The position numbers and the translations under genes are program-made. The notes beneath the pieces are model-generated. The model ran no database searches. It saw only the letters and a list, made by a program, of their open reading frames with translations, and was not told where the DNA came from. Of a stretch of DNA of 64,000 nt, positions 1,506 through 54,537 are shown piece after piece (positions within the stretch are counted from its first letter, which is position 1; each line of letters begins with the position of its first letter). This stretch comes from a virus (Duplodnaviria; Caudoviricetes). Where the stretch lies: positions 32,001-96,000 of the IMG/VR virus record IMGVR_UViG_3300013426_000019. One strand, 5' to 3'.

Positions 1506-2246
1506 ATGGGAAATACAAGAGACAGCTTAAGGTTAAGTTTATTCAGCAGTCATGATAGTCACAGTAGTCACAGCAGTCACAGCGATCATAGCAGTCACAA
1601 TAGTCATAGTAATCATGCCAACACAGATACCCAGAATTGGGATACTTCTAAGCTAGCAAATATTTCTTTCCCTAGTGCGGATGATACACTTAGTGTACAG
1701 AAATATCAAAATTTAATGAAAAATTTAAATATTATTAGATCCGCAGTAGGATTATCTCAAAGTAGTACCAATGCCTCTGATATTGCGGAGGCTTCAGAGT
1801 ATAATAGATTTAAATTACAATTAAAAAAAGTGACTAAGCAAGGGGTAACAGGAGGCACTTATTACAACGGGTTGTCGGAGGGTGGTACTGATTGGATTGA
1901 TATCCCGGGAGGGGCATCAAGTAAACAATCTTTATTAACAGATGTTCTGGGTTATTCTACTATACAATCTAGAATATTGGATGCTAAAAATAGAGGTATT
2001 CCAGTGCATGCCAGCCATAATAATCATATTGATCATGGTGACCATGGTAGTCATAGCGACCATAGTAGTCATAGTGACCACAGTGACCACAGTAGTCATA
2101 GTAATCACGACAGTCATAGTAGTCACGGCAGTACCGCGGCAAATTCCACATATAATGCATCTATTTATATCTCTAATTTAGGTTCAGATCACGGAAGCCA
2201 ATACTCCACACCTTATAAGAGCTCAGACTCATGCTATAGAACATAA
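1506..2246 (+). CDS. His-Xaa-Ser repeat protein (HxsA-like putative radical SAM substrate)
   Basis: 8 N-terminal and 14 C-terminal H-x-(S/D/N) triplets around a non-repeat core; GGAGG RBS; heads a radical SAM cluster. Confidence 0.8.
   Translation: MGNTRDSLRLSLFSSHDSHSSHSSHSDHSSHNSHSNHANTDTQNWDTSKLANISFPSADDTLSVQKYQNLMKNLNIIRSAVGLSQSSTNASDIAEASEYNRFKLQLKKVTKQGVTGGTYYNGLSEGGTDWIDIPGGASSKQSLLTDVLGYSTIQSRILDAKNRGIPVHASHNNHIDHGDHGSHSDHSSHSDHSDHSSHSNHDSHSSHGSTAANSTYNASIYISNLGSDHGSQYSTPYKSSDSCYRT
1551..1616 (+). repeat. 9-nt period coding repeat (His every third residue), block 1
   Basis: HDS HSS HSS HSD HSS HNS HSN H. Confidence 0.9.
2007..2132 (+). repeat. 9-nt period coding repeat (His every third residue), block 2
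   Basis: HAS HNN HID HGD HGS HSD HSS HSD HSD HSS HSN HDS HSS HGS. Confidence 0.9.
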
Positions 2247-2258
2247 GTATTCATATTT

Positions 2259-3317
2259 ATGAATTTAGGTTTAGGGACTTTACATTTTTCATCTAAAATT
2301 TTGAATTCTTCAGAATTCAGAGAAATGATCCATTATTGTGTTCGAAATAATATAAGTTATTTCGACACTGGATTTTATTATGGGGAAGAACTAACGGAAT
2401 TTGCATTAGGAAAGCAATTATTTAATTTCCCAAGAGAATCTTATGAGATAGCTGTAAAATATATCCTTAATAGAGAGCATTCCCCTGAGGAAATGCTAAG
2501 GATTCAATTTCAGAAATTAAATATATCCTATGCAGACAATTTACTACTACACAATTTAACTGATAAAAATATTTCTTTTTATTTTGATTTTTTGGATTTT
2601 TTAGAGAAGAGTAAAAGAGAGGGCCTAGCAAAGAGAATAGGATTTTCTTCCCATCTATCCCCTCAAAACTTGGAAATTTTCCTAAAAATCAGAAAGTGGG
2701 ATGTAATATACCTTTATTTAAATTGGGTCGATTTTTACTCGAATACGGCCGAGGAAGAATACAAATTATGTGAAAAATACAAAGTCCCTGTTGTTGCTAT
2801 GGGTCCTCTAAGAGGTGGAAGAATATTAACTTTACCTAAAAAATATAGTTTGGAGTTAAAGAGAGTGCATTCCGAGTGGTCTTTGGTGGATTGGTCTCTA
2901 GGTTGGTTTAATTCTTTAAAAAATTGCAACAGAGTGCTTACTGGGGCCCTTTCTATTAAAGAATTACAAGCTAATATAAAAGCCTCTAAAAATAATTTAA
3001 GTTTATCAGATTTAAATCTTCTGAGAGATATTGCTGTAGATTATAAAAAGGAAAAATTAATACCGTGTACCGGTTGTGGATATTGTGAGAATTTTTGCCC
3101 TCAAAAAATAAAGATACCTCTAATAATTAAAAATTACAATAAATTTCTCTACGAGGAGGAGAAAGATCCTCGCTGGCTTCTCTCTTGGATGAAAGAAGAC
3201 TTAGTTTCATCAGATATAAACCTATGTGTTTTCTGTGGCAATTGTGAACAAATATGTCCTCAAAAAATTGATATTCCAAGGAGAATTAAAATAATTGAAT
3301 CTTGTATTAACTGCTAA
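2259..3317 (+). CDS. aldo/keto reductase with C-terminal 2x[4Fe-4S] ferredoxin domain
   Basis: LGLGT, YFDTGFYYG, LLLH, IGFSSH, AMGPLRGG; CTGCGYCENFCP and CVFCGNCEQICP. Confidence 0.9.
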   Translation: MNLGLGTLHFSSKILNSSEFREMIHYCVRNNISYFDTGFYYGEELTEFALGKQLFNFPRESYEIAVKYILNREHSPEEMLRIQFQKLNISYADNLLLHNLTDKNISFYFDFLDFLEKSKREGLAKRIGFSSHLSPQNLEIFLKIRKWDVIYLYLNWVDFYSNTAEEEYKLCEKYKVPVVAMGPLRGGRILTLPKKYSLELKRVHSEWSLVDWSLGWFNSLKNCNRVLTGALSIKELQANIKASKNNLSLSDLNLLRDIAVDYKKEKLIPCTGCGYCENFCPQKIKIPLIIKNYNKFLYEEEKDPRWLLSWMKEDLVSSDINLCVFCGNCEQICPQKIDIPRRIKIIESCINC

Positions 3318-4323
3318 ATGTGATAAGAATTGTAAAAACTGTTTTGCCTCAGAATACAGAAGACAAGAAAACCTTTTAAATAAGGATTTAGATTTATCTT
3401 TTTTAGAAAAAATATCGCCCTGGGACGGAGTATCCTCTCCCGATATAGGTATATTAGGAGGGGAGCCTACCCTAAATTCCTCTTTTTTCTTGATTCTTAA
3501 AAAATTATGGGATTTGGATTATGTTCCTGTGGTTTTTAGTAATTTTTTATTTGAGGATTTTTTCAAAATTAAATTAAATTCTTTTGTTCAGGATAATATC
3601 TCTCAGAAATTAAAATTCCTCGTAAACATAAATGATTTGAAGGGACCACATCTAAGTAGAGTAGTCAAAAATATTAATTTTATTCAAAAAACCCTTGCTT
3701 CTCAGAGGAAACTGAATGAACTATCTCTTTCTTTAACTATAGATCCTGTAAATTTCAATTCTACTTTTAAATATTTATGTGCCTTTTATAAAAAATTAGA
3801 TTTTATGCCTCGTCTTCGAGTAGGGATAGCTCTTCCCTCTGATTCAGAGGATAAATCTCAGTATAAAAAAATTATAAATAATAAAAATTTAGGAAATACT
3901 ATTATAAGCATTCTTCAATGGTCAGAAAGGCATCGTGTGTGTGTTTTTCTCGATTGTGGTATTTACCCCTGTATTTTTTCTTCTGAAGATTTCTCTATTT
4001 TTCAATCTTTTTTCCCAGATTTTAAATTTGGGTGTGGTGATGAACCCGCTTTTGATATTTTTCCTAATGGAAGGTCTATATTCTGTTTTCCTTTAAAAAA
4101 TCAAATTGCAAATTTTCTTTCTTTAAAAAGAAATTCAGATTTTTCTAATTTTTTTGATATAGTAGAAGCAAAAGAGAATTTAAAAAAGCAATTTATAACA
4201 ATGAAAGAAAAATATTCTTGTAAGGAGTGTTTGACATGCTTTTATAGTGATCTCTGTGAAGGAATATGCCCTGCATTCTTAAAAGGTTCTTTAAAAAAGC
4301 CCAAAGAAGCCTACAAAAATTAA
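3295..4323 (+). CDS. radical SAM protein with C-terminal Cys (SPASM/twitch-like) motifs
   Basis: CDKNCKNC, LGGEPT, C-terminal CLTC..DLCEGIC. Confidence 0.9.
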   Translation: MNLVLTAKCDKNCKNCFASEYRRQENLLNKDLDLSFLEKISPWDGVSSPDIGILGGEPTLNSSFFLILKKLWDLDYVPVVFSNFLFEDFFKIKLNSFVQDNISQKLKFLVNINDLKGPHLSRVVKNINFIQKTLASQRKLNELSLSLTIDPVNFNSTFKYLCAFYKKLDFMPRLRVGIALPSDSEDKSQYKKIINNKNLGNTIISILQWSERHRVCVFLDCGIYPCIFSSEDFSIFQSFFPDFKFGCGDEPAFDIFPNGRSIFCFPLKNQIANFLSLKRNSDFSNFFDIVEAKENLKKQFITMKEKYSCKECLTCFYSDLCEGICPAFLKGSLKKPKEAYKN

Positions 4324-4378
4324 AAACAAAATCAAAATAATTATATTATTAATATAAGAGGTAAGGAGATTTAAAATT

Positions 4379-5815
4379 TTGGAGCCTTTATATAAATTTG
4401 AATTTGAAGCTGTCAATATATATTTTTCTGCAGTCTGTAATCTGAGGTGCAGATATTGTTTTCAACCTAAAATAAATGGTATTTCTCAAGAAATAAATAA
4501 AAAAATTGTAAATTGGATTACCTCCGGAAAAATGGAAGAGGATATAATTAAATATTACGGGGTAAATATTAGTGCTCTCTCTCTCTGGGGAGGAGAGCCT
4601 GGTATAAACCTTCCTATATTAGAAGAGAGGTTGGAATTTATTTATAATAAATTCCCTAAATTAGAAACCATACATTATTCCAGTAATATTTCCACAAAGA
4701 AATTAGCGCGCAATTCTGTTAATTTTATAAAAAAAATAGCTTTTTTGAATGAAAAGTTAGGTAAAAAAATCTCAGTATCTTTACAATTTTCAATTGATGG
4801 GCCTCCCGAAATAAATGATTACAACAGAGTTGGCTCAAAAGCAGAAAATATTCTTAATAATATTACCTTTTTATTGGAAGAATTAAAAGATGTTTCACCT
4901 GACTCTTATTCTTTGAATATTAAAGGAACTCAATCCGCGGATAATATTACTTTTCTAATAAAAGACAATAATTTACTTGAATATTATCAATATTTTGATA
5001 AATGGCAATCCCTCTGGCTAAAAATTTTACCTGAAGAAAAAATTCCGAAGGGCTCAACTTTTATCACACTAGTATATCCTGGGAATTTCACCCAGGAGGA
5101 TGGTTTTAATTTTAAAAAGCTGATAGAGCTTCAAAATTCTGAATCTTTTCAAGAAGAATGTGCCTGCAACACCTTTGTAAATTTCGATAACCAAGTAACA
5201 CGCCGTATAAAAGACACCCTTTCGGCTCTCAGGGCTGGTTACTATAGGGAGTATAAGGGGGAGTTATTACGGGTCTGTTCTTGCAGCGCAGGCAAATCCT
5301 GCGGGGGCCTAACCTATGATTCTCAATTTCACCTATGTCAGGCCACCTATATGTTTAATGAGGATATTCTTAATTATATTGAAAAACATAATTTAATTTC
5401 CGAATTTGAGGATAAGCAGGGATTCAGCTTTAGAAGCTTCGACGATCTTATCAAAGATAATATTGTAGTATCCTTTAGCGATGATTTAAAATTGTCAAGA
5501 CTTCTTTATAAGATAAATAATTTTAATTATAATTTATCTCTTAAAGTTCAGTACTTTGAAGTAATTTTATCGGAATTAGCAGCTGCGAATCAAATCAGCA
5601 GATGCTATCTGGACCCTAAGTGGAGAGATTTAGGTGTTGCTTATCTTCTTTTTGGGGGACATGAATGTCCTGTAAATAACATTTGGGAGTTTAGTTCTCC
5701 TTATATAAGAAGCACCTCCCATTTAAAATTGGTTTTTAATGGGGCCTTTGAGTACTATGTAAGTAATCATTATAGAGATATTTTAGGTCTAAACATAAAG
5801 GATATGATAAGATGA
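4379..5815 (+). CDS. radical SAM protein
   Basis: CNLRCRYC, WGGEP, SIDG, CSAG; TTG start after AGGAG. Confidence 0.9.
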   Translation: MEPLYKFEFEAVNIYFSAVCNLRCRYCFQPKINGISQEINKKIVNWITSGKMEEDIIKYYGVNISALSLWGGEPGINLPILEERLEFIYNKFPKLETIHYSSNISTKKLARNSVNFIKKIAFLNEKLGKKISVSLQFSIDGPPEINDYNRVGSKAENILNNITFLLEELKDVSPDSYSLNIKGTQSADNITFLIKDNNLLEYYQYFDKWQSLWLKILPEEKIPKGSTFITLVYPGNFTQEDGFNFKKLIELQNSESFQEECACNTFVNFDNQVTRRIKDTLSALRAGYYREYKGELLRVCSCSAGKSCGGLTYDSQFHLCQATYMFNEDILNYIEKHNLISEFEDKQGFSFRSFDDLIKDNIVVSFSDDLKLSRLLYKINNFNYNLSLKVQYFEVILSELAAANQISRCYLDPKWRDLGVAYLLFGGHECPVNNIWEFSSPYIRSTSHLKLVFNGAFEYYVSNHYRDILGLNIKDMIR

Positions 5816-7197
5816 ATTTCAATTTCATAGAAGAACAGAAAAAACTACTTTATTCTTTTCTAGACATTCACTGCTTCAGGAATTGGAGGATTCCCCCCTC
5901 AAAAAGAACAGGAGAGGAGTATGTAAATCTTTTAGAAATGATGGTTTCGCCCGTATGTAATACTGCTTGCACATATTGTTACATGAAAAATTATGCTGAT
6001 TCTCTATACCCTTGTTTTTATGATAAAAATTCCTTATTAAATAATTGTAAAAAGATTATGACCTGGCTCAAAAAAGAAAATTTTTATCCCTCAAGTATAG
6101 AGATTTTTTCCGGAGAATTTTTCAATTTGCCCTTTTGGAAGGATTATTTACAAATAATTTATGATTCTCTAGAAAAAATGGAGGAGGGTAAAAAAGTACC
6201 AATAGTAATTCCCACCAATGGAACTTTTTTTGATTCTGAGAAAAAAACACAGGAAATACAAGATTATTTTGACAGAGTTTATAAAAAAGGTTTTATTATT
6301 GTTCTATCTCTCTCTGTAGATGGATATTATTTAGATAATGATACACGCCCTTTTAGAGACAAAAGAAGATACACAGAAGATTTTTATGATAGGATGTTTA
6401 GATTTGGGGCTCGTAATTTAATTAAATATCATCCTATGATAGGCGCGAAAGGTATAGAGAGATGGGTAGATAATTTCGATTGGTATGTAGAAAATATTCA
6501 AAAATATTACAAAATTCCAAAAAAAGAAGCCCTTGAAAAATTATACTTATTAGAGGTAAGAAATCCCGACTGGTCTACTAAGGAATTAAAAGATTTTAAA
6601 GTTTTTTTAAATCATATAATTGATGTTTTATTTGAGGGGTGCACATCTCCTGAGGAGAAGTTCAATCTACTTCTCAGCAATACTTTAAATATACTAGCAC
6701 CTCTAGTAGTTACTATAGGAAGAGGCCTCCCCTGCTCTTTTCAGCAGTGTCTAGATTTAAGGGTAGGAGATCTTGCCTTAGTTCAGTGTCATAGAACAGC
6801 ATATAGCGAATTGCTAGGCGGGTATTTTAAAATATCAGATAAAGGAGAATTAGACCTAGACGTGCGCAATGCAAATTCATACATTTTTTCTAATTCTTTT
6901 AATTTTAAACACCTAGCCAAATGCATAGATTGTCCTATTAGCTCTCTTTGTAATGGGCCTTGTTTAGGGTGTAATTATGAGGTTAACAGGGATTTATATA
7001 CTGTAGTGCCTACAGTTTGTGATTTAGAATACACAAAGGCTTTGACTTTAGTTGAAAGGGCGTATCAAGAAGGCTTTTTAGATAGTATTTTAGAAATACA
7101 TTCAAATAGCACCTCCTCTGATTCTGTTTTAAAGAAAAATCAATTATTACACCTTAAAAAATATCTAGAAATTAAAAACACTAAAGGAGATTTTTAA
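5812..7197 (+). CDS. radical SAM/SPASM protein
   Basis: CNTACTYC, PTNGT, SVDG, CHR, CIDC...CNGPCLGC. Confidence 0.9.
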   Translation: MNFNFIEEQKKLLYSFLDIHCFRNWRIPPSKRTGEEYVNLLEMMVSPVCNTACTYCYMKNYADSLYPCFYDKNSLLNNCKKIMTWLKKENFYPSSIEIFSGEFFNLPFWKDYLQIIYDSLEKMEEGKKVPIVIPTNGTFFDSEKKTQEIQDYFDRVYKKGFIIVLSLSVDGYYLDNDTRPFRDKRRYTEDFYDRMFRFGARNLIKYHPMIGAKGIERWVDNFDWYVENIQKYYKIPKKEALEKLYLLEVRNPDWSTKELKDFKVFLNHIIDVLFEGCTSPEEKFNLLLSNTLNILAPLVVTIGRGLPCSFQQCLDLRVGDLALVQCHRTAYSELLGGYFKISDKGELDLDVRNANSYIFSNSFNFKHLAKCIDCPISSLCNGPCLGCNYEVNRDLYTVVPTVCDLEYTKALTLVERAYQEGFLDSILEIHSNSTSSDSVLKKNQLLHLKKYLEIKNTKGDF

Positions 7198-7199
7198 TA

Positions 7200-7703
7200 A
7201 TGTTATTGGATCAAGTAAAAGAATTTATTAATTCAAATAAGAATTTGATAGACGATCTAACTAAGGCTAGACCACAGGGGTATATTTATGCTTTTTTACA
7301 AGAATGCCTCTCATTAATGGAAGGAGGAGATTCCTCAAAAATAGATGAGACCTTTTTACATGAATATAGATATACTGTATTGACTTTTACAGACGTCATT
7401 ATCAAAACAAAAACAACACAATCAGAAAAAATCGTGATAAAAGCAATTGCAAACTTATTATATAATGTCTCTATTAATTATGGCATAACCGAGTGCAGTA
7501 CTGAGCTTAATGCTTTGGTGATACTTTCAGAAGCCTCAAAATCTTTAGAGGATATTTTATATGTATTGATATGTATTTTTAATAAATTAAGTGATAGACT
7601 TTATGAAGAGCCTACGACTAATCTTCTTTCAAGAAAATATTATTTAGAACTAAGTGATTTTTTAGAAGCAAGAAAATCCCATGATGAAAAATATAATATA
7701 TAA
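7200..7703 (+). CDS. hypothetical helical protein in radical SAM cluster
   Basis: ORF with AAGGAG RBS, coupled to upstream gene. Confidence 0.6.
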   Translation: MLLDQVKEFINSNKNLIDDLTKARPQGYIYAFLQECLSLMEGGDSSKIDETFLHEYRYTVLTFTDVIIKTKTTQSEKIVIKAIANLLYNVSINYGITECSTELNALVILSEASKSLEDILYVLICIFNKLSDRLYEEPTTNLLSRKYYLELSDFLEARKSHDEKYNI

Positions 7704-7744
7704 AAGTAACAACAAAACTTAATCATTTTTTAAGGAGTACTTCA

Positions 7745-9016
7745 GTGTTTCAGTGGAGTAATTTAATTATAGTGGCACTCACTCAAAAATGTAATATGAA
7801 CTGTAAATATTGCTATCTTGGAGATAAATCATCCCTTCCCGACACTGAGATGAGTTTTGCCACCTATAAAGTTTTAATAAATCAAATAGCTTTAGATAAG
7901 GTTCAGTTTTTTAAAGAAAAAGGGAAGATTTCCAAATTTCAGGTGCTTCTTCATGGGGGGGAACCTACTCTTATTTCCAAAAATAAATTTGAGAGATTTT
8001 TAGAATATGGAACAAAAGTCTTCAGTGCGTATGGCCTGCCCTTCGAATTTTCAGTGCAAACTAACGGCATTAACTTAGACCGGGATTTATTACAGATATT
8101 TAAAGATTATAACGTCCATTTAGGTATAAGTATAGACGGATGTACTAATAATTTAAGAGATGCCCCTGTTGATCAAAAATTGATTATTAATCATTTAAAT
8201 TTAGCTAAAGAAATGGATGTTAAATTTGGCACAGTAAGTGTATTCACATCATTAGATGATAAAAATTTTTTGGATGAAATTCTAGCTTATAATGGGTGGA
8301 TGTGCATCAAAGTTAATAAAATGGAAGAGTATTATAATAATGGATTAACTCCCTCTCCTGCCCATTATTTTAATAATATATTTCTGCCGTCCTTCAAAGA
8401 TTATATTTCAGGATCTAAATCGAGAATTTATTCTGATTTAGAAAGAATAATAGATGGTTTTTTAATAGATGTTGCTACTTCTCATAGTTATAATACCCAG
8501 AGTACCTGCAAATTTAAGTTTTGTGGAGCAGGAACAAAACTTATAAGTATAATGCCCAGTGGGCTAATGCATATATGTGATCATTGGAGAGGTGATGAAA
8601 CTTTTTACAACGAAAAAGTGCATCAAGTGGGAACTTTTGATTTTCTTACTTTGCAACAATTCAGAGCCTCCCTACGTTGGATTCAAAAATTAAATCCCTT
8701 AATTAAGGAGAAAGGATGTGATAATTGTATTTACTCAATTATATGTTTGCATGAATGTCCCTTATCTAATATAAAGTTAAATGGGAAGTGGGCCCTTGAT
8801 AAAAGGGATTGTGAACTTACTAAGATGATTTATGATTATCTTTGGGAGCATCTTGAGGATTTATTAGAAGGTGTAAGTAAAAGGAAAAATAATATAATTT
8901 CGACCACTGATTTCTCTATATATAAGTTGCATAAAAGATTCCAATTGAGTAAGTATAAAATATCAAAGATTAATCGTAATTCTATTAAAATAGAAAAAGG
9001 CGCAGAGCATGTTTAG
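7745..9016 (+). CDS. radical SAM/SPASM peptide-maturase-like protein
   Basis: CNMNCKYC, HGGEP, QTNG, SIDG, CKFKFCGAG, CDNC..IICLHEC. Confidence 0.92.
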   Translation: MFQWSNLIIVALTQKCNMNCKYCYLGDKSSLPDTEMSFATYKVLINQIALDKVQFFKEKGKISKFQVLLHGGEPTLISKNKFERFLEYGTKVFSAYGLPFEFSVQTNGINLDRDLLQIFKDYNVHLGISIDGCTNNLRDAPVDQKLIINHLNLAKEMDVKFGTVSVFTSLDDKNFLDEILAYNGWMCIKVNKMEEYYNNGLTPSPAHYFNNIFLPSFKDYISGSKSRIYSDLERIIDGFLIDVATSHSYNTQSTCKFKFCGAGTKLISIMPSGLMHICDHWRGDETFYNEKVHQVGTFDFLTLQQFRASLRWIQKLNPLIKEKGCDNCIYSIICLHECPLSNIKLNGKWALDKRDCELTKMIYDYLWEHLEDLLEGVSKRKNNIISTTDFSIYKLHKRFQLSKYKISKINRNSIKIEKGAEHV

Positions 9017-10274
9017 ATTTACAAATTTAATAATTTTCGAATTGACTAGAGATTGTAATCTTAATTGTAAATATTGTTTAATGCAAGAAAAATATAAACA
9101 TAGAGGAGAAATTATTGATTTTGAGCTTTTTAAAAAAATAATTAATAGAATAGCTGAACAAAGAATTTTAAATGGTAAAGATCAAGAAGAATTTCATATA
9201 AATTTTCATGGGGGTGAGTGTACTCTAATAGGAAAATATAATTTTACTAGGTTTTTGGACTATGTGACTAAAACTTACGATGAATTGGGTCTGAATTATA
9301 AATTAGGGATACAGACTAATGGAACTTTATTGGATGAGGAATTCCTTAAGATTTTAAGACATTATAATTTATCTGTTGGTATCAGTTACGATGGTACTGG
9401 GGAGAAAAAGCCTTTACGATATTCCACAGACATTCAAAGTAAACTCGAGGATACTATCAAACTCTGTACCAAAATGAAAGTACCTATTGGTGTATTAGGT
9501 GTTTTATCTAAAAATAATAGTAATAATTTAGTTAAAGACAGTATTTCCCAATTTAAAAAATTAGGTATTTTTTCTAAATATAGTTTTCTTGAGGACTTAC
9601 AAAATCCTTATGATTCTAAAATCGAATTAACAGGAAAACAAATATTCAAAAGAGCATATAAACCTATAATTGATTTTTACATAAAGACTGGAATTAAACT
9701 AGAACAACATACAATAGCTTTAATGACTGACACCTTGACTGATATATTATGCTATCACCCTAGAAGGTATGAGACAGGTTGTTCAGGGTTGATTTGTGGT
9801 GCTGGTATGACCATGATTGCTGTCAGGCCTGATGGTACTATGGGGTACTGCGATAGATATTCTAAAGATTTTAATGAGAATTATATAGAGCACGCTTTAG
9901 ACTATGACTTTTTAGGTCTTCATCAATTGAGCAAAGCTATTAAATTAGTCCAAATAAAGCACAGAATAATTCAAAAAGTAGGTTGTGATACCTGCAGGGC
10001 AAATTATATGTGTGAAAATGGGTGCTTGGCTTTTTATTATTCTAAATTTGGGAAATATGATATTCAAAAGGAACTTATTTGTGATCAATATTTACTTACT
10101 TATGATTATGTAAGAAAAAATTTAGTTAAAATATTATTAAGTAGCATCGACAAACATTTTATTTTACCTGCCGGAATTCATGATATCAAGCCTTATTATG
10201 TAGATTTATTTAAAAATAAATATAAAATTAAATTGACAATAATTGATAATATATTATATATATATAAGGTATAA
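9009..10274 (+). CDS. radical SAM/SPASM peptide-maturase-like protein (paralog of 7745..9016)
   Basis: CNLNCKYC, HGGE, QTNGT, CSGLICGAG, CDTC..YMCENGC. Confidence 0.92.
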   Translation: MFRFTNLIIFELTRDCNLNCKYCLMQEKYKHRGEIIDFELFKKIINRIAEQRILNGKDQEEFHINFHGGECTLIGKYNFTRFLDYVTKTYDELGLNYKLGIQTNGTLLDEEFLKILRHYNLSVGISYDGTGEKKPLRYSTDIQSKLEDTIKLCTKMKVPIGVLGVLSKNNSNNLVKDSISQFKKLGIFSKYSFLEDLQNPYDSKIELTGKQIFKRAYKPIIDFYIKTGIKLEQHTIALMTDTLTDILCYHPRRYETGCSGLICGAGMTMIAVRPDGTMGYCDRYSKDFNENYIEHALDYDFLGLHQLSKAIKLVQIKHRIIQKVGCDTCRANYMCENGCLAFYYSKFGKYDIQKELICDQYLLTYDYVRKNLVKILLSSIDKHFILPAGIHDIKPYYVDLFKNKYKIKLTIIDNILYIYKV

Positions 10275-10284
10275 GGAGCCTCAG

Positions 10285-44826: not shown

Positions 44827-46337
44827 GTGAACTACTCTTCAGCTAAAGACTGAAGAGCTTCTTTTCAAAGCATCACCACTTTGATTTTCTACTTCGTAGG
44901 ATACTCCACAAATCTCTGAGTTACAAAGATTTATTTCCATATCCTCCATAGACATGACTTCTTGCTGTTCCAGCAATAGAGTTGATTTTAAATCATCAAC
45001 TAGGATTCTAATTGCGTTTTCTTTTAAATTTTGAGCCGCATTTTGATCGCGTATGATTTTTGTTCCACATTCCGGACAAATCCAAACTCGATCTTTTAAT
45101 GTTAGCTCTTTATTAACGTAACCACAATGATTACAAGTTTTACTTGAAGGATAGAACCTATCAGATTTAATCACAAGACAATTATTAAACTTAGCTTTTT
45201 GCTCAAGTCTAGTTACAAATGTATACCAACTAGTATCTACATAATTTTTGGCATTATGACTGAACTTCATCATACCTCGAAGGTTAAGATCTTCAATTCC
45301 AATTACATCGTAATTCTGAACTAATCTTAAAGTTTCTTTCTCCCTGTAATCTTTTCTAATATTAGCAATATGATTCTCAAATCGAGCAAGCTTGATTCTC
45401 GCTTTTTCTCTATTTTTTGAATCTTTTTGTTTTCTTGCTAATCTTCGTTGTAGTCTTGTTAATTTTCTATTGTTTTCTTGTTTGGCTTTTTTGAAGTTTG
45501 GAGCTTCCTCATTTAAATCATTTATATATAACGAATTAGGACTGAAGTCTAAGCCGATTGCTTTATCTAACTTAATCGTTGAATAAACATCTTGTTCTTT
45601 TTCAAACAAGATTGAACACCAGTATTCCCCACAGGCATTTTTGGAGATAGTCATGTGTTTTGGAATAGCTTCTTTGAACCAACTTATCCATTTTTTAGAT
45701 TTATCTTCAGCGTGTCTAAATCTGACTTGCTTAAGTTTGGGAATAGTTACCAGCCTATGATCCCAATCTAGACAATTTTTAGGAAGCATGAAAAGTGAAA
45801 AGCTGTCCTTGTGTTGCTTCTTAGATTTGAATTTTGGAAAACCTACTTTCTTGCCTTTTCTTTGTTTGGTTATAGATTTAAAGAAGTTGCTGAATGCTTG
45901 TTCACAGTTTCTTTGACTTTGAATCAAAGGTTCAGCTATAGCATCACTTAAGAACTCATACTTCTCTTCTCTAAGTTGTTTTGGAAGTTTGCCTTTGAAT
46001 TTGTTTCTTTGATCTTTAGGCAAATCTTTGTTTGCATTGTACCACTCAATATGTTCAGCCAATCTTTCATTATAGAGTAATCTACAACAACCAAACGTTT
46101 TATTTAGGAGAATTTTTTGATTTTCGTCAGGATATAGTCTGATTTTTAAAGACCTATGAATTATACTAATTTTATCAGACATTGATCAAACTCCTTACTA
46201 GTTTGGTTTTTGTTTGGGGATATTTTAGAACTGCAATTCTAGAATATCCTGTTTTTATTTTTATACTATAATTAGTGACCAGGGTTTAAAAGGTTGAAAT
46301 CGCTGCATCCCTTAGACTAAAGACCTAAGAGTTTTAG
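44827..46337 (-). mobile_element. second IS200/IS605-family TnpB-only element
   Basis: Right end (minus strand) AAGAAGCTCTTCAGTCTTTAGCTGAAGAGTAGTTCAC; left-end hairpin CTCTTAGGTCTTTAGTCTAAGGGATG; left boundary approximate. Confidence 0.78.
44839..46182 (-). CDS. tnpB: RNA-guided endonuclease TnpB (close paralog of 27588..28925)
   Basis: Same motifs, RuvC D-E-D intact. Confidence 0.95.
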   Translation of the reverse strand: MSDKISIIHRSLKIRLYPDENQKILLNKTFGCCRLLYNERLAEHIEWYNANKDLPKDQRNKFKGKLPKQLREEKYEFLSDAIAEPLIQSQRNCEQAFSNFFKSITKQRKGKKVGFPKFKSKKQHKDSFSLFMLPKNCLDWDHRLVTIPKLKQVRFRHAEDKSKKWISWFKEAIPKHMTISKNACGEYWCSILFEKEQDVYSTIKLDKAIGLDFSPNSLYINDLNEEAPNFKKAKQENNRKLTRLQRRLARKQKDSKNREKARIKLARFENHIANIRKDYREKETLRLVQNYDVIGIEDLNLRGMMKFSHNAKNYVDTSWYTFVTRLEQKAKFNNCLVIKSDRFYPSSKTCNHCGYVNKELTLKDRVWICPECGTKIIRDQNAAQNLKENAIRILVDDLKSTLLLEQQEVMSMEDMEINLCNSEICGVSYEVENQSGDALKRSSSVFS

Positions 46338-46483
46338 CGATTTGGGTTTTTATAAAATTATGTTGTATTAAATGCTTGACCTTATCTACAAAATAGAGTA
46401 ATATATAGATGTAAATAAGGAAAAAGCAAATTATATCAAAAAAAAAATGCGACTTATTATATAGTTCAGAATCTTATAAGGAG

Positions 46484-46987: not shown

Positions 46988-47012
46988 AGACAAGGCGAGG
47001 ACAAATAGAGAA

Positions 47013-47531: not shown

Positions 47532-47793
47532 AGAGGGGGTTGTTCATGATAAAACATGGGAACTCATTGATGAAGATAGAGGTATCCTTGCTGAATAAGT
47601 ATAGCGCTTAGAAGAGCTTGAAAAAATCTATTGAAATATAGTGAAAACTTCAAGACCTAAGGTTATACTATATATGATCAAGGAAGAAAGGAGGGGTTGG
47701 TTCTTCAGATTCTAGAAGATGAAGAGGAGTCAACCCATTGTTAGTTAAATTAGGAATAAGGTATGTTAGGAGGGGAGGGCTTATGCCTGGATT

Positions 47794-48873
47794 ATGTTGA
47801 GAGGATTAGAAAATCTTAAAATAAGATTCAAGTTAAAGCTGCATGCTTCGAGCTTCTTTTTATTTCCTAGAAAAAATAATATTATAACCAATATTATTAA
47901 TCTCCCTAAAAATATAGAAAATTTAAATGCCTCTAGAAATAAAGTTACTATTGAATTAAATTTAAAGTGCAATGCAAATTGTATTTTTTGCAGCAGAGAT
48001 GCTTCGGGGGCTAATAGAGGCTTTTCCTTAAGTTTTGAAGAAGTAAAGAATATTATTGAGACTTCTAAAAGATCAGGCACGCGCATGATAGAATTTACAG
48101 GAGGTGAGGCCCTTTTAGATTCTCTTCTGCCAGATTATTTAGATTACACTCATGAATTGGGAATGCAGACTCAGCTCATTACAAATACCCTTGGATTTAG
48201 CAATCCTATTTTATGCGAGCGACTTTTACCTAAATTAGATTCAATTGAAATGTCTGTACCTTGCGTTAATGAAAATACTTATAATAAATTGACAGGAAAA
48301 AAAGCATATTTTCAATTAATAACTGCTTTAAATAATATTAAAAAATCAGATTGCCAAAAGCAAGTATTTATAATAGCCCTTAAAAGTAATCTTCCTTATT
48401 TACTAGATACCCTGGAATTTTTTAAAGATTTTAGAAATTTAAACTACATATCTATAGTGTATCCTTTATTAGAGGGAAGAATGCATTCTCTTTTTGATGA
48501 ATATCTCTCTTTTTCGGAATTCAGATTTTATATTATACCTTTTTTAAAAAGAGCAAAAGATCTAGGTATTAATATAGTAGGAAGTAAGATACCTCTGTGT
48601 GCTTTTTTTCCTTATGAAAATTTTATTTTTATAAATTCAAAAGAATTTCCTTATAAAAAAAAAGTTATACGTAAATATAAAAATGAACATGTATGCGCTT
48701 ATAGGGAAGAAAATCTACTAGACGATCGAGTAAAATATTTAGAATGTAAAGAATGTATATATAAAGATTCTTGTTTAGGGGTTATAGGCGAGTATAAAAT
48801 TCTTTTTAAAAAAATAGATCCTATTACGCGAGAAAAAAATGAAAATAGATCAAAATATTTTTCAAAATTCTGA
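47794..48873 (+). CDS. radical SAM protein
   Basis: ELNLKCNANCIFCSR, FTGGEALLD, IPLC, CKEC..DSCLGV; start uncertain. Confidence 0.88.
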   Translation: MLRGLENLKIRFKLKLHASSFFLFPRKNNIITNIINLPKNIENLNASRNKVTIELNLKCNANCIFCSRDASGANRGFSLSFEEVKNIIETSKRSGTRMIEFTGGEALLDSLLPDYLDYTHELGMQTQLITNTLGFSNPILCERLLPKLDSIEMSVPCVNENTYNKLTGKKAYFQLITALNNIKKSDCQKQVFIIALKSNLPYLLDTLEFFKDFRNLNYISIVYPLLEGRMHSLFDEYLSFSEFRFYIIPFLKRAKDLGINIVGSKIPLCAFFPYENFIFINSKEFPYKKKVIRKYKNEHVCAYREENLLDDRVKYLECKECIYKDSCLGVIGEYKILFKKIDPITREKNENRSKYFSKF

Positions 48874-49837
48874 TTTTAAATCAATTTACAGCAGGGTGTA
48901 CAATGCTGAGAGTTTAGAAATAGGTACTCTTGAGCTAAATCTCAGGTGCAATCTTTCCTGCATCTTTTGCAGCCGAGAAGCCCATGTTTTTAAAAAAAGT
49001 GAGAATTTAATTCTTCCTGAAATTTTATCTTTTATTGAAAATAAAGACATTATAGTGTTTTGTGGGGGCGAGGCCCTGTTAGATTCTAGACTTCCTTATT
49101 TATTAGAGTATTGTAAAAAAACAGGAAAAAAGACCGCCTTAATATCAAATGGCATTCCTTTTTCAGATCCTAAAATTTGCAAAAGTATTTTAGAAAATTT
49201 GGATTTTCTTACTTTGTCTGTTACCTCCGTAGATTCTAAAATTTATAATTTTATGACGGATTCCAATCAATTTTCTCTTTTTCAAAAAGGTCTTGAAAAT
49301 ATAATGAAGGACCCTCATGAGAAAAATTTACATAAAAGTATAAATATAGTATTATTGAATTCAAATATAAACTATTTGCAAGATATTCCTTTATTTTTCG
49401 AGAAATTAGGAATGCATTCAGTTTTTCTCTACTCTCTTTTATACCCTATATATTTAGGTCGTCTATTAGACTTCCCTCAGGAATTTCCTAATCCAACTTC
49501 GGAAATTTTTCAAAAAAATTTAATGAATTTATGTAATCTTTTAAAGTCAAAAAATAAAATAATTAGATTTGAAAATATGTCGAGCTGTTTTATCCCAGAA
49601 ATAGACGCGGATTTTGTGGATTCCGAAGAAAATTACGGCAAACACTCTTTTTATTTAAAAAAAATTAATAATAAATTGATATCCTACACTAGAGATAGTA
49701 TTGTTGGAACTTATAAAAAGTCTTTTCGGTGTGAGTCCTGTTTGAAAAAAAATTATTGCAGAGGTTTACCGGAAGTAGCAAAAATATTATTTGAAAATAA
49801 AATTACCCCCTTCAAGAGGGGCAATAAGGAAAAATAA
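48839..49837 (+). CDS. radical SAM protein (paralog of 47794..48873)
   Basis: ELNLRCNLSCIFCSR, CGGEALLD, CESC..NYCRGL. Confidence 0.88.
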   Translation: MKIDQNIFQNSDFKSIYSRVYNAESLEIGTLELNLRCNLSCIFCSREAHVFKKSENLILPEILSFIENKDIIVFCGGEALLDSRLPYLLEYCKKTGKKTALISNGIPFSDPKICKSILENLDFLTLSVTSVDSKIYNFMTDSNQFSLFQKGLENIMKDPHEKNLHKSINIVLLNSNINYLQDIPLFFEKLGMHSVFLYSLLYPIYLGRLLDFPQEFPNPTSEIFQKNLMNLCNLLKSKNKIIRFENMSSCFIPEIDADFVDSEENYGKHSFYLKKINNKLISYTRDSIVGTYKKSFRCESCLKKNYCRGLPEVAKILFENKITPFKRGNKEK

Positions 49838-51109
49838 ATGTATAGTTTAAAACTAGGTTCTGCTTGCAACAATGACTGCATTCATTGTAATGTAAATTCA
49901 GAAGATAATATTGAAAATTTAATTTTTGAGGAAATTCGGGAGATAGTTGATGATATTCCTCAAGGGGAAATAATTTGTCTAGAAGGAGGGGAACCAACTC
50001 TAAGAGAAGACTTTTTTGATATAGTAGAGTATTGTGGTTTAAAAGGGCATAAAATAATACTCCAAACCAACGGCACGGGCCTCACGGAAGAAATCACCCA
50101 AAAAATAAAGCCTTTTGTAAAAAAAGTATATATATCTATATATTCTTCTAATTCTTATATTCATAATTTAATTACTAGAACTCATAATGAAAAAAGTACA
50201 TTTGAAAAAACAATACAAGCCTTAAAAAATCTCTATAGGTATTCTATTCCATTCAATACGCAAACAGTTATTTCTAAAATTAATATGGCTTCTTTATATG
50301 ATACTTTCTCCTTTATTCAAAAAGAATGCCCTGGTATTTTTATGTGTCTCACTTATCCTCATCCTATTAAAAATATTTGGGAAAATAAAATTTTAACATG
50401 TGTTTCTTTTAAGGAATTGAAGCCCTTTATTCAGCCTTGCTTCAGAGATTTCGGTCCTTTTTTAATAGTAGAGTCAATTCCTCCCTGTTATATATTTCCT
50501 TTTTATCAAAATATAGGATATAATTTAGACGCTATTATTAAAAATAAACTTTTAAAAAACGAGAATTACTATAAATATGGGGATGTAGAAAAATATCCAG
50601 TTAAAAACTTTAATTTTAAAAGAAAGGGCCCTAAATGTGTGGACTGCTTTTATTTTGAGGAATGTCTAGGTGTTTGGAAAGAATATGTAGATTTGTATAG
50701 ATTACATTTCGATCTTTTTCCTATAGATATAAAAACCCCCTGGAATATTTCTTTGGATAATTTTCTACAACTTGAGATAGATGATTTTTCTTATGAGGAT
50801 ATAAAAAAGATCCTAGAAAATAATAAAAATTATAAGCCTGTTTTAATTAAGATTAAAGATTTTTCAAAAAATCTTTCAATTAAATTGAATAGGGCAAAAG
50901 CAATATCTCAGATAGTAGACAATTATTCTTTCCCAATATCTTTTTTAGATATCCCTAAATGTTATTTAGAGCCCTTTACTGGAGTAATCAACACTTATCA
51001 AAAAAATTTTGAAAAAAATTCAGACAAATGTAAAAATTGCAATTTTAGAAAGGAGTGCTTTGGCTTTGATTTCAAATTAATTGATTCCAAGATGAAGGAT
51101 TGGAAATGA
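49838..51109 (+). CDS. radical SAM protein (paralog of 10285..11865)
   Basis: CNNDCIHC, GGEPT, QTNGTG, LTYPHP, IPPCY, KRKGPKC..C...ECLGVWKEY. Confidence 0.9.
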   Translation: MYSLKLGSACNNDCIHCNVNSEDNIENLIFEEIREIVDDIPQGEIICLEGGEPTLREDFFDIVEYCGLKGHKIILQTNGTGLTEEITQKIKPFVKKVYISIYSSNSYIHNLITRTHNEKSTFEKTIQALKNLYRYSIPFNTQTVISKINMASLYDTFSFIQKECPGIFMCLTYPHPIKNIWENKILTCVSFKELKPFIQPCFRDFGPFLIVESIPPCYIFPFYQNIGYNLDAIIKNKLLKNENYYKYGDVEKYPVKNFNFKRKGPKCVDCFYFEECLGVWKEYVDLYRLHFDLFPIDIKTPWNISLDNFLQLEIDDFSYEDIKKILENNKNYKPVLIKIKDFSKNLSIKLNRAKAISQIVDNYSFPISFLDIPKCYLEPFTGVINTYQKNFEKNSDKCKNCNFRKECFGFDFKLIDSKMKDWK

Positions 51110-51134
51110 AGCTATCTTAAAATAGGAGTGAAAA

Positions 51135-51824
51135 ATGCTAAGAATTTCTTTAGAAAAAGGTGAGGAAGGGTTTGAAATCTTAAAAAATTCTTTAATTGAG
51201 GACAGAGAATCTTTTTTAGAAAATAATTTTATAAAAAATAGAAAAGATATAATCACATTGATTCTTTTGGATAGAAATGTTATTTTTGAAAGGGTTCCTG
51301 AAAAAAGTAGCTCTTTTATAAAAGATAATATTTTCTGGATTAAAGCTCAGTACCCCGCTGTGCTTTCTTCTTCCCTTGCAGGAAGATATGAAAAGCCTTC
51401 TTTATTTCCAAAAGGAGAATTTCTTATAAGTTATTTTCGCTCTTTCACCTCTGAATCCCTTGCTAAAAGGGACTGGATTATTAATGAAATTCCTTATGCT
51501 CTTATTAATTCTATTTTAAAATTAAAAGGAAATGAGGAGTATAAAAATATTCAGTTAAGGGGGCATACAGTTCTCTATAAAAATAAAAAAGTTTTAGCAG
51601 AAGAAACTTTTTATAATTCTTCTTCAGTATTTTTTGATTGTCAGATTCATCTAGATTGGAATCAGGAAAGTTGGGATATTTATGATAAATATTGTAGTGA
51701 ATTTAAAAGTGCATATGAAAAGGGAAATCTTTTATCTTTATTAAATATTTCCAGAGAAGAATTTTTAAAAGTTTTTATATCCGAATTGGAAAATTTGGAA
51801 TATTTTATTAAAATAATGGAGTGA
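51135..51824 (+). CDS. hypothetical protein, possibly remote lipoate/biotin-ligase fold
   Basis: GHTVLYKNKKVLAE weakly resembles the NDIL.NGKK.G motif. Confidence 0.35.
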   Translation: MLRISLEKGEEGFEILKNSLIEDRESFLENNFIKNRKDIITLILLDRNVIFERVPEKSSSFIKDNIFWIKAQYPAVLSSSLAGRYEKPSLFPKGEFLISYFRSFTSESLAKRDWIINEIPYALINSILKLKGNEEYKNIQLRGHTVLYKNKKVLAEETFYNSSSVFFDCQIHLDWNQESWDIYDKYCSEFKSAYEKGNLLSLLNISREEFLKVFISELENLEYFIKIME

Positions 51825-51834
51825 ATTAAATTTT

Positions 51835-52107
51835 ATGGATGAAATTTGTACACGATGCGGAAAAAAGATAGAAAATACAAAAATAGAAATTAATTTAGGC
51901 TTTTCTGTTTTTAAAAGAGAAAATAATGTTTGGGGATTGTCTTTGGATCTTAATCAAAAATCTGTTGAAATTTTATGTGCAAATTGTTTTGATAATTTTT
52001 GCAATACTTTATTTATTAAAAATAATAATGAATTTTTAAAGAATTTTAATACATCTAAAAAAAATAAAGATCCTGTTGAAATTGACGGAAATGTGGACTA
52101 TAACTAG
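51835..52107 (+). CDS. small zinc-finger protein
   Basis: CTRCGKK...LCANCFD. Confidence 0.7.
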   Translation: MDEICTRCGKKIENTKIEINLGFSVFKRENNVWGLSLDLNQKSVEILCANCFDNFCNTLFIKNNNEFLKNFNTSKKNKDPVEIDGNVDYN

Positions 52108-52130
52108 TTAATTTTTTTAACAGACTTAAG

Positions 52131-52166
52131 CAAGAAATCCCTTTGCTTTAGTCAAAGGTTATTCAC
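52131..52166 (+). mobile_element. collapsed IS200/IS605 end remnant (36 bp)
   Basis: TTAAG|CAAGAAATCCCTTTGCTTTAGTCAAAGGTTATTCAC. Confidence 0.7.
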
Positions 52167-52210
52167 ACTAAAGATTAAGTCTTAAAAATTTTGAAGGAGG
52201 GTTTTAAGTA

Positions 52211-53077
52211 ATGTTTGAATTTTTAACAGACACAGGATCTGAAATAGATAATTACCTTAGAGAATCCTTAAATATAGGCCTTCTCAGGACGGGTGTTACT
52301 TTAAAAACAAGAGAGATCTTTTCAGATGCGAATTGGGATAATGTAAATGCTTTTGAATTTTTCAAAGATTTAGAAGAGGGCGTAGTAAGCATATATCAGC
52401 CCGCAATGAATTACTGGAAAGATATTGTAGAAGAGATATTTAAGAAGGGTAAAGACGTATTATTTTTAGGTATGTCCTCCAGATTTACAGGGGGAATCAA
52501 AAATCTTAACATTATTAAAATGCTTCTGAGTCCTATTTATCCTGACAGAAAATTAGTAATTTTGGACTCAGGGCTTGTTGCAGGAGGCGAGAAATGTCTA
52601 GTATTAGCTGTAGCAGAGTATTTAAAGGATAAAAGAGAAGAAGATGTAGAAAAAATAGCCTCTGAAATAAAAATCAAGTTTTTAGGCAGAGGAATAACTT
52701 ATTGGATTTTAGATTCTTTAAAATTCTATATGAAGGCTAATAGAGGTTTAGATTCTTTTAAAGATTTGAATATTCCTAAAGGTTATCCTATAATAAAATC
52801 TGAGAATGGCAGCTTTTTTTTAAAAGGATTATTTAATTCAAAAGAAGATGCTTTGGAAGCACTAATAGGGGATATAAAACTCTCATCTATAGAGACTTTG
52901 GAGTTTACTTACTCTCCGGACTGGGATTTAAAAAAGATAAGAGAAGTAGTAAATCAGCTGGAATCTAATTTAAATATTATTATTAATCATAATATTACTT
53001 ATCAGAGCCCGTCAGTTACTGCTGTAACAGGGCCTTATTCTTATAGTATAGGAGTTTTAAAAAATGTTACTTTTTAA
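52211..53077 (+). CDS. DegV family fatty-acid-binding protein (FakB-like)
   Basis: LTDTGS, QP, MSSRFTG, VILDS, SPSVTAVTGP; 288 aa. Confidence 0.8.
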   Translation: MFEFLTDTGSEIDNYLRESLNIGLLRTGVTLKTREIFSDANWDNVNAFEFFKDLEEGVVSIYQPAMNYWKDIVEEIFKKGKDVLFLGMSSRFTGGIKNLNIIKMLLSPIYPDRKLVILDSGLVAGGEKCLVLAVAEYLKDKREEDVEKIASEIKIKFLGRGITYWILDSLKFYMKANRGLDSFKDLNIPKGYPIIKSENGSFFLKGLFNSKEDALEALIGDIKLSSIETLEFTYSPDWDLKKIREVVNQLESNLNIIINHNITYQSPSVTAVTGPYSYSIGVLKNVTF

Positions 53078-53154
53078 TGAAGCTTTTAAATCTTGTTAAA
53101 AAACCTCTAATCCTTAGAAGATCAAAGGGTATTCTTTTTTTAATACTTCCTTAT

Positions 53155-53161
53155 ACTAATT
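53155..53161 (+). promoter_or_regulatory. ACTAATT putative phage late-promoter motif upstream of the Cys-repeat operon
   Basis: Same heptamer precedes structural genes (16007, 21612, 30717, 32155, 41343; minus strand 15546, 20412, 23910). Confidence 0.55.
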
Positions 53162-53241
53162 ATATATAATAAGTCAACATAATATTTCTTATGTAAATAA
53201 TTAATTTTGGTAATTGACATCTAATTTAGGAAGGATATAAT

Positions 53242-53517
53242 ATGAAGGATACAAATATTGAATTGTCTGCAGAAGACAGACAAGATATAAATCTGTCTTT
53301 AGAGGTTATTAATACCGCAGAATTTGAATTGAGGAATATATCGGGATTTGAGAATCTCAAAGAAGAAGAAGTACGAAATATTTACCAAGGGGCTTGTGAT
53401 GCCCTGATAGAAGGGAGAGTAATGCTACATCTTCTTCGCCAAGAATTTGTAAAAAAATATAATATTCCATATGATTTTATTTCCATCGATGGTCATATTT
53501 ATTTACAAGAGGATTAA
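53242..53517 (+). CDS. CXXX-repeat modification system accessory protein-like
   Basis: ~90 aa, LSAEDRQDI...IYQ...KKYN...IYL pattern and position recall the small TIGR04116-type partner. Confidence 0.45.
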   Translation: MKDTNIELSAEDRQDINLSLEVINTAEFELRNISGFENLKEEEVRNIYQGACDALIEGRVMLHLLRQEFVKKYNIPYDFISIDGHIYLQED

Positions 53518-53520
53518 ATA

Positions 53521-54537
53521 ATGGCGGTTATCCCTGACAATCAAAATTTTTTATCTACAGACAAGAATACCCCCCTAAAGGAAGCACAATTAAAATCTTT
53601 ACTAGCACAAGCTATTACAGCGAGAGCTAAAAGAGGTTGGACTACTTCTGAAGACAGTATCAGTCTCTATACTCATAGGGTGTCCCTTTCTCAGATGAAT
53701 GATATGTCAAACGTTATTATTGACAAGTCATCCGATCAGCATATTCCTTATAGTAGTTCACCTTATCCTAAAGCAATTTCCTCAGGGTCGAAAGTTTTTG
53801 CTAAAGCTACAGATTATAATGAATTGCAACAAGCAGTAAATGATATATCTAATAATATTATGTGCGAAGGTTGTAGTAATACTTGTTATGCAAGCTGTGC
53901 AAATTCTTGTGCTTCAAGTTGCACTAGTACTTGTGTTAATTTATGTACAGATAATTGTGGCTCTTCCTGCACAGACACTTGTAACAGCATAAGTTGTAAT
54001 AATGCAAATTGTTCTGCGGCTAATTGTTCTTCGGTAGCTTGTACAAAAACCAACTGCTCCTCAGGAAGTTGTTCTTTCGGTGCTTGTAATGCCTCGGGAT
54101 GTGATAAAGGCTCTTGCGAGAATGGTTCATGTCATCAAAGTTCTTGTGAGAGATCAGGATGCAACTATGATAGTTGTGATTCTACTTCCTGTGATTCTGG
54201 TTCTTGTGATACAGGCTCTTGTAGTCAGAAGACATGCAGCGATTCCGGGTGTAGTAAAGATACATGTGGCAAGGCCACCTGTTCTAGTGGGGCCTGCAAC
54301 GGTGGTGAATGCAATTCAGGAGCTTGCGCGAGAAGTGGCTGCGACGCTTCTAATTGTTCCACGGATAGTTGTGATGACGCAGACTGCAATGCGGACCCTT
54401 GCAGCAATAATACATGCAATAGCACGGGCTGCAGCCACGATAGCTGCTCTAATAACACTTGTGACTCTGATGATTGTAGCACTGCCACTTGTTACAGCGG
54501 GGATTGCAATGGTGGATCTATGAATAAATCACATTAA
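53521..54537 (+). CDS. Cys-repeat protein (CXXX then CXXXX), putative radical SAM substrate
   Basis: ~114-aa non-repeat N-terminus, then 46 Cys with strict periodicity. Confidence 0.85.
   Translation: MAVIPDNQNFLSTDKNTPLKEAQLKSLLAQAITARAKRGWTTSEDSISLYTHRVSLSQMNDMSNVIIDKSSDQHIPYSSSPYPKAISSGSKVFAKATDYNELQQAVNDISNNIMCEGCSNTCYASCANSCASSCTSTCVNLCTDNCGSSCTDTCNSISCNNANCSAANCSSVACTKTNCSSGSCSFGACNASGCDKGSCENGSCHQSSCERSGCNYDSCDSTSCDSGSCDTGSCSQKTCSDSGCSKDTCGKATCSSGACNGGECNSGACARSGCDASNCSTDSCDDADCNADPCSNNTCNSTGCSHDSCSNNTCDSDDCSTATCYSGDCNGGSMNKSH
53863..54509 (+). repeat. Cys-periodic coding repeat (12-nt then 15-nt period)
   Basis: 9 CXXX intervals followed by 35 CXXXX intervals. Confidence 0.9.

Follow-up and report, generated by a model that had tools for sequence, protein, structure and literature searches.

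Do two repeat proteins of a large phage share a scaffold? A conserved N-terminal domain in the Cys-repeat protein and an orphan core in the His-repeat protein

The window analysed here, a 64-kb stretch (bases 32001-96000) of the IMG/VR virus record IMGVR_UViG_3300013426_000019, encodes two repeat proteins in the company of genes for radical S-adenosylmethionine (SAM) enzymes. P0001 has a His at every third position of its repeats, and P0002 carries a ladder of Cys residues, chiefly at every fifth position. A preliminary description of this DNA had proposed, from motifs aligned by eye, that their non-repeat regions share a cryptic two-helix scaffold, a carrier or virion-docking module onto which different modifiable repeats are grafted as a swappable chemistry cassette. 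This locus thus raises the question of whether the two proteins are variations on one module. The reading that we favour, if only slightly, is that they are two separate targets of radical SAM enzymes, encoded in two islands of low guanine-plus-cytosine (GC) content, with no common scaffold demonstrable between them. Residues 1-114 of P0002 represent a Cys-free domain of ~105 amino acids (aa) that had not been catalogued before, called hereafter the N-domain. For the 135-residue core of P0001, an orphan, three members are known.

The motifs on which the proposal was based do occur, starting at residues 61 and 94 of P0001 and at residues 18 and 94 of P0002 (Table 1), and the ungapped likeness between them is at chance level. 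The first pair shows four identities and a BLOSUM62 score of 9, and all 1000 shuffled versions of the P0002 region contain a better 22-mer. The second pair, also with four identities, scores 26, a value reached by 25% of the shuffles. The distance between the motifs is 33 residues in P0001 and 76 in P0002, which gives pair offsets of 43 and 0, and hence no ungapped or nearly ungapped alignment can accommodate both pairs. Gapped Smith-Waterman alignment of the two non-repeat regions gave a score of 32 as against a shuffle mean of 30.6 (standard deviation 5.5, p = 0.35), and an alignment limited to offsets 38-50 scored 21 where shuffles averaged 21.1 (p = 0.45). BLASTP of P0001 against P0002 aligned only His repeats to Cys repeats, with E > 2. 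As far as the sequences tell, the likeness of the motifs is what two amphipathic helices rich in S, N and Q give by chance.

Comparison of shallow profiles of both regions with hhalign yielded a probability of 0.2%. When the P0001 region was compared with the N-domain, hhalign gave P values of 0.015 for all members, 0.12 for sub-family A and 0.19 for sub-family B, in three different registers. The P0001 core scored 5.1 and 5.8 bits against two N-domain profiles, values attained by 47/3000 and 30/3000 shuffled sequences (1.0-1.6%), and the reversed core reached 1.5 bits on the first profile and 7.2 bits on the second, more than the real sequence. In its own genome, P0001 ranks 8th of 317 open reading frames (ORFs) and 3rd of 307 for these profiles. 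Neither non-repeat region had any meaningful match in Pfam, PHROGs or NCBIfam at E values up to 10, and phmmer and hmmsearch against PDB sequences returned nothing below E 0.06. The PDB matches to Robo3 fn3 (E 0.39) and BrxC (E 0.065) were discarded as noise, and one to DHX15 falls on the His/Ser low-complexity part.

The N-domain emerged from the loci of related maturases, i.e. the radical SAM/SPASM enzymes encoded next to the Cys-repeat genes. Starting from an alignment of three maturases, we found 133 relatives in IMG/VR and kept 80 loci (numbered below with the prefix L); locus searches of IMG/VR with P0001, P0002, a single maturase or the alignment A1 as the query found nothing. About 60 Cys-repeat ORFs in the 80 loci have their first run of Cys residues at residue 97-118, after a Cys-free domain. 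L005, L006 and L007 align with the N-domain of P0002 over the full length. Residues 9-114 of P0002 reach 52 bits (E 3.6e-18) with a family profile that includes P0002 itself; with one built without P0002 and P0006, the score is only 1.9 bits. An exhaustive HMMER search with residues 1-116 of P0002 produced three matches, P0005, P0006 and P0007, the last one weak. P0006 is a stand-alone protein of 125 aa (E 4.6e-8, aligned over residues 4-113). In a word-indexed protein search, the N-domain sequence of P0002 retrieved nothing and a profile retrieved P0006 only. P0005, of 5126 aa, was rejected as an artefact, as 19 apparently identical 271-residue repeats contribute 3.7 bits each to its summed score; that it ranked first in this way is a warning for the use of summed-domain E values.

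The family comprises two sub-families, A and B, of common architecture and genomic context (hhalign P 0.0024 between them). The consensus of the first helix is roughly h-x-A-E-x-F-x-x-L-K-x-x-V-K-x-E-x-x-R-R; it usually ends in RR or RG, and the jumbo-phage sub-family to which P0002 belongs has RGW at this end. Next come an aromatic residue, a strand or hairpin segment with proline (P-x-x-G-x-x-I-x-x-E-H-x-x-K-x-x-x-P-L), a spacer that varies and the final helix. Comparison with Pfam, PHROGs v4 and PDB sequences returned no match to the family, which on this basis appears to be new to all three, and tblastn of INPHARED phages with three N-domain queries found no relatives. The profile was run across 4406 ORFs, and its matches are Cys-repeat proteins only, plus one ORF of 111 aa that consists of the N-domain alone (L070). 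In related jumbo phages of 88-100% completeness, each record has a single copy, on the Cys protein, and no P0001-like gene. As the N-domain is thus found only on Cys-repeat proteins or by itself, the idea of a cassette that swaps one chemistry for another does not find confirmation here.

Proteins with an N-domain always occur with a radical SAM/SPASM maturase of the CXXX type and usually with a small protein of ~90-100 aa, and the order conserved across loci is small protein, N-domain-Cys protein, maturase. Homologues of the window's 91-aa accessory protein occupy the corresponding place in L005 (E 1.6e-14), and a single round of profile searching adds those of L006, L011 and L028; the protein has no NCBIfam match at E <= 0.001, TIGR04116 included. 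The maturase of the window scores 217.6 bits for TIGR04115, below the cut-off of 350, yet this is its best family by far; it is also PapB-like (E 1.3e-42), and TIGR04463 gives only 29 bits. Whole P0002 has no match in Pfam, NCBIfam or PHROGs. The 64-aa Cys-repeat peptide encoded next to it is related to its repeats (tblastn E 8.9e-6) and scores 17.6 bits for the TIGR04114 repeat, whose cut-off is 20.

In the L057 and L012 groups and in L045, L006 and L004, the cassette is located among baseplate-wedge and tail-fibre genes (PHROG E values of these neighbours, 7e-67, 8e-53, 3e-52, 6e-18 and 4e-24). That the family often sits in such surroundings makes a link of the N-domain with the virion plausible; the support for a tail or baseplate role is gene neighbourhood, and it concerns relatives of P0002.

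Some of these loci have peculiarities of their own. L057 codes for two substrates, one of 176 aa with an N-domain and a short Cys ladder (3237..3767), and one of 265 aa without N-domain, the Cys ladder of which starts at residue 5 (3777..4574). This layout recurs in ~25 IMG/VR loci on gut-type phage contigs, directly after baseplate wedge genes. In L004 (MT835573.1), a tail-fibre-like protein is encoded directly upstream of the Cys-repeat gene (2352..3461); its N-terminal helix is of the type I-x-A-D-x-I-N-x-L-K-x-x-I-x-A-I-E, which the preliminary description had associated with phage tail proteins, and the N-domain profile misses this protein. In L003 (MT837480.1), a contig that may be bacterial rather than phage, a 174-aa Cys-repeat protein (2222..2746) by a related maturase has a twin-arginine-like signal (SRREFFK...) in place of the N-domain.

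The closest described arrangement is the CXXX-repeat system, which is computationally defined (TIGR04114 repeat, TIGR04115 maturase, TIGR04116 accessory protein) and similarly combines a Cys-repeat protein, a TIGR04115-type SPASM radical SAM enzyme and a small accessory ORF. The window cassette differs from it in missing the TIGR04115 cut-off and in the lack of TIGR04114 and TIGR04116 matches for P0002 and the accessory ORF, respectively. Furthermore, the phage substrates carry the ~105-aa N-domain and are encoded in tail/baseplate clusters. A biochemical precedent comes from Methanococcus voltae, whose SPASM radical SAM enzyme CrpC installs ranthionine (thioether) links on CrpA, with the N-terminal domain of CrpA aiding the engagement of CrpC; CrpA and CrpB have a common N-terminus and different repeat bodies (PMC13692751). 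Like CrpA, P0002 is a large Cys-repeat protein with an N-terminal non-repeat domain, not a short peptide. In contrast with CrpC, of the TIGR04463 family, the window maturase belongs to another family and appears to be devoid of the predicted RRE domain of CrpC, and the setting is a phage rather than an archaeal cell. The ranthipeptides among the ribosomally made peptides with post-translational modifications (RiPPs), such as PapA/PapB and SCIFF CteA/CteB, also have an unmodified N-terminal part ahead of a Cys-rich C-terminal part. However, the 'leader' of the P0002 family has, with ~105 residues, the size of a folded domain, the product is 176-540 aa long and encoded among virion genes, and the cassettes examined show no trace of a protease or an exporter. 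In the literature, we found no publication on phage versions of Cys-ladder proteins with radical SAM maturases.

P0001 is laid out differently. A 15-aa N-terminus is followed by eight H-x-x triplets, the 135-aa core, ~14 further H-x-x triplets and a conserved C-terminal tail, which places the core between two His-x-x repeat blocks, not ahead of one. Only two homologues, with 84% and 77% identity, were found among 5.8 billion proteins. The core has no Pfam, PHROG or PDB match, and no relatives of P0001 were detected in IMG/VR, in INPHARED (tblastn with the core) or in JGI metagenomes (two scans). A scan of IMG/VR DNA for the His-every-third pattern yielded chiefly off-frame repeats and no P0001-like core. 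Other His-repeat ORFs were seen without such a core, namely one of 109 aa with a signal-like N-terminus and a (SHA)n tail in L125 (3593..3922) and two tandem ORFs of ~100 aa each with HDS/HDL/HNL triplets in L180 (2074..2825).

The enzyme set of P0001, with HxsB/HxsC-like and cyclophane-type radical SAM enzymes, also differs from that of P0002. The likeness between the core of P0001 and the N-domain is limited to the predicted order of secondary-structure elements and to common language-model neighbours. AlphaFold2 (AF2) models from shallow alignments, with pLDDT values (local distance difference test, as predicted) of 49 for the P0002 region and 43.5 for the P0001 core, have a helix at residues 21-37, strands at 47-54 and 61-68, a 30-residue spacer and a helix at 99-111 in P0002. 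In P0001, they place a helix at 64-80, strands at 93-99, 102-110 and 118-122, and helices at 140-148 and 151-163; the strand at 118-122 falls inside a stretch of ~29 residues equivalent to the P0002 spacer. The announced two-helix description would be half right: the models of both proteins have helices at the ends of a helix-hairpin-spacer-helix arrangement, with the AEASEYN...KKV stretch of P0001 predicted, at this low confidence, as a beta strand or hairpin. Foldseek searches with these low-pLDDT models of both regions, and VIA-align, returned nothing above noise and no fold match. An fn3/Ig fold for the N-domain, which the Atlas neighbours and the Robo3 match might suggest, was set aside, because both AF2 and the family motifs give helices at the two ends.

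Several observations nevertheless weigh against two unrelated proteins. They lend some credit to a tentative alternative, in which both proteins would hold one small alpha/beta domain (helix, hairpin, spacer, helix) diverged beyond sequence recognition, a virion-docking or oligomerisation module with Cys or His repeats attached. The AF2 maps of the two regions nearly superimpose, each with a helix of 17 residues, then a 9- or 12-residue loop, two strands, a spacer of ~30 residues and a terminal helix. The offset that they imply, about +43, agrees with the pairing of the first motifs and contradicts that of the second. In this register, residues 64-80 and 140-163 of P0001 would correspond to residues 21-37 and 99-111 of P0002, and hhalign against sub-family A also selects the register of motif 1. 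The ESM Atlas clusters coincide both by features and by structure: the top feature cluster (a 113-aa hypothetical protein, 102 members, mostly viral) is common to the two regions, with scores of 0.94 and 0.91, as are five clusters of structural neighbours at TM(query) 0.59-0.67, i.e. a 206-aa Peptidase_S74, a 607-aa and a 784-aa fn3, a 507-aa Big_7 and the 113-aa cluster. Neighbours in the Atlas include phage proteins with fn3, Ig or Peptidase_S74 domains, which would fit a reusable N-terminal module. In addition, sub-families A and B are themselves linked only weakly, so that this fold diverges further than sequence methods can follow, and the failure to match P0001 by sequence is weak evidence against a common fold. 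Regarding the virion, the cassette of the window is outside the tail module, on an island ~9 kb from the structural block. A fold common to the P0001 core and the N-domain is a real possibility, albeit not the probable one. We consider it unlikely that both proteins are tail or baseplate components of the virion built on one ancient alpha/beta docking domain, with Cys thioether or His ladders grafted onto it (HxsC-like/cyclophane-type enzymes); were this true, the phage would customise its particle with two orthogonal radical SAM chemistries on a common carrier. What stands of the carrier or docking module initially proposed is a distinct conserved module in P0002 with a plausible link to the virion on the Cys side. 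P0001 stays at or near chance in sequence and profile comparisons, with no significant profile-profile match between the two regions; for structure, the negative is a loose one.

With two separate proteins as the favoured reading, the N-domain would serve as a handle by which the Cys ladder is offered to the maturase, for which the N-terminal domain of CrpA is a precedent, and the maturase would install thioether cross-links in the ladder. Gene neighbourhoods suggest that the domain may also anchor the completed ladder in the tail or baseplate. It might instead be purely a long leader, recognised by the maturase and the small accessory protein and without any role in the virion, which we regard as somewhat unlikely. 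That it strictly accompanies one family of maturases and a small accessory protein would fit such a role, as would the contribution of the CrpA N-terminal domain to CrpC engagement. A separate recognition partner is plausible, since the window maturase has no N-terminal extension (its TIGR04115 match begins at residue 12), and with a pure leader, and other enzymes for the His protein, there would be no reason for P0001 to share the N-domain. However, these cassettes also encode Cys-only proteins that lack an N-domain (in the window, the 64-aa ORF; in the L057 group, the 265-aa ORFs), and N-domain-only proteins exist as well (P0006, L070), which together make a pure leader less likely, and a location amid genes for baseplate and tail fibres points to a structural fate. 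As for P0001, it could be a phage-borne relative of the HXS system (HxsA-D, TIGR03976-03979), matured by radical SAM enzymes and directed against competing phages in superinfection exclusion, with a core unrelated to tail proteins. HXS is an experimentally shown anti-phage defence that blocks phage DNA entry (PMC13128918), and P0001 has His-x-Ser repeats, weak HxsA and HxsA4 matches, and HxsB-, HxsC- and HxsC4-like genes nearby. Yet all these matches are far below the curated cut-offs: 34.6 bits for HxsA4 (cut-off 55) and 26.3 bits for HxsA (TIGR03979, cut-off 121.65) in P0001, at best 74.8 bits for HxsC (ORF 10243..11865, cut-off 267.9) and 59.5 bits for HxsB (ORF 7745..9016, cut-off 370) downstream of it, so that no HxsB and HxsC pair is called there. 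No HxsD match turned up at the locus, although no search was aimed at HxsD. HxsA has a processed N-terminus, periplasmic export, a peptidoglycan-binding domain and basic repeats, whereas P0001 has, by inspection, neither a hydrophobic signal-like N-terminus nor basic repeats, and no Pfam domain, a peptidoglycan-binding one included, which makes this a minority view. The 22 triplets of P0001 in two blocks flank a unique 135-aa core, as against five triplets in HxsA, and six radical SAM genes are present instead of two. Finally, 99.7% of HXS systems are in Pseudomonadota (PMC13128918), unlike this phage of 30-40% GC rich in anaerobe-type enzymes. An HXS relative is unlikely in our view.

If the carrier were shared, phages would have a modular means of showing different enzyme-made chemistries on their particles, a principle of virion maturation that would be new and that the present analysis does not establish. 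The established result is smaller, namely that phage Cys-ladder substrates of radical SAM enzymes carry a conserved handle of ~105 residues. Residues 1-114 of P0002 provide a construct boundary for studying the recognition of a full-size protein by a RiPP-type enzyme, and whether the product is mounted on the tail. The one characterised precedent, CrpA/CrpC, suggests that N-terminal domains of this kind are of importance when the enzyme engages its substrate. The features discussed are collected in Table 1.

Table 1. Positions in the window of the two repeat proteins, their motifs and the genes around them
Feature	Position	Strand	Basis or prediction
P0001, His-every-third repeat protein, 246 aa	1506..2246	+	translation
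P0001 non-repeat core, residues 38-172, claimed scaffold region	1617..2021	+	
Motif 1 in P0001, TLSVQKYQNLMKNLNIIRSAVG, residues 61-82	1686..1751	+	predicted helix
Motif 2 in P0001, AEASEYNRFKLQLKKV, residues 94-109	1785..1832	+	AF2 beta hairpin, not helix
Aldo-keto reductase fused to two 4Fe-4S motifs	2259..3317	+	Pfam, NCBIfam
Six radical SAM genes	3295..4323, 4379..5815, 5812..7197, 7745..9016, 9009..10274, 10243..11865	+	Pfam, NCBIfam
167-aa ORF, no match	7200..7703	+	
Small accessory protein, 91 aa, directly upstream of P0002	53242..53517	+	homologues at matching position
P0002, Cys-repeat protein, 338 aa	53521..54537	+	translation
P0002 Cys-free N-domain, residues 1-114	53521..53862	+	homologue P0006, family profile
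Motif 1 in P0002, PLKEAQLKSLLAQAITARAKRG, residues 18-39	53572..53637	+	N-domain helix 1
Motif 2 in P0002, AKATDYNELQQAVNDI, residues 94-109	53800..53847	+	N-domain last helix
64-aa Cys-repeat peptide without N-domain	54552..54746	+	weak TIGR04117, TIGR04114 matches
Radical SAM/SPASM maturase, CXXX-repeat-target type	54756..55940	+	TIGR04115 E 3.4e-64

The record from which the window is taken is 158.8 kb long with a CheckV completeness of 74%, which corresponds to an uncultured phage of ~215 kb. Ten radical SAM genes are present within the 64 kb, split over the two low-GC islands: six lie after the His-repeat ORF, and of the other four, three come before the Cys-repeat ORF and one after it (spans 3295..11865 and 47794..55940). 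Several of them have weak similarity to HxsB, HxsC, HxsC4, PapB or cyclophane maturases, always below the family cut-offs. The GC content runs from 0.29 to 0.32 over 1-12 kb and from 0.28 to 0.34 over 48-56 kb, and is ~0.40 in the structural block. Tail-fibre-like genes and a gene for a virion-type protein of 2368 aa occupy 30.8-44.8 kb. Two transposase genes in inverted orientation (445 aa, 27588..28925, + strand; 447 aa, 44839..46182, - strand; phrog_506, E 7e-90 and 7e-94) bracket this block of tail-fibre and large-virion-protein genes, at ~29-45 kb of the window. The Cys-repeat cassette is flanked by a DegV/FakB-like gene (52211..53077; TIGR00762, E 5e-16) and a DAK2/FakA-like gene (56644..57489; Pfam E 4e-11 and 9e-9), which may represent a fatty-acid kinase pair beside the protein-modification module.

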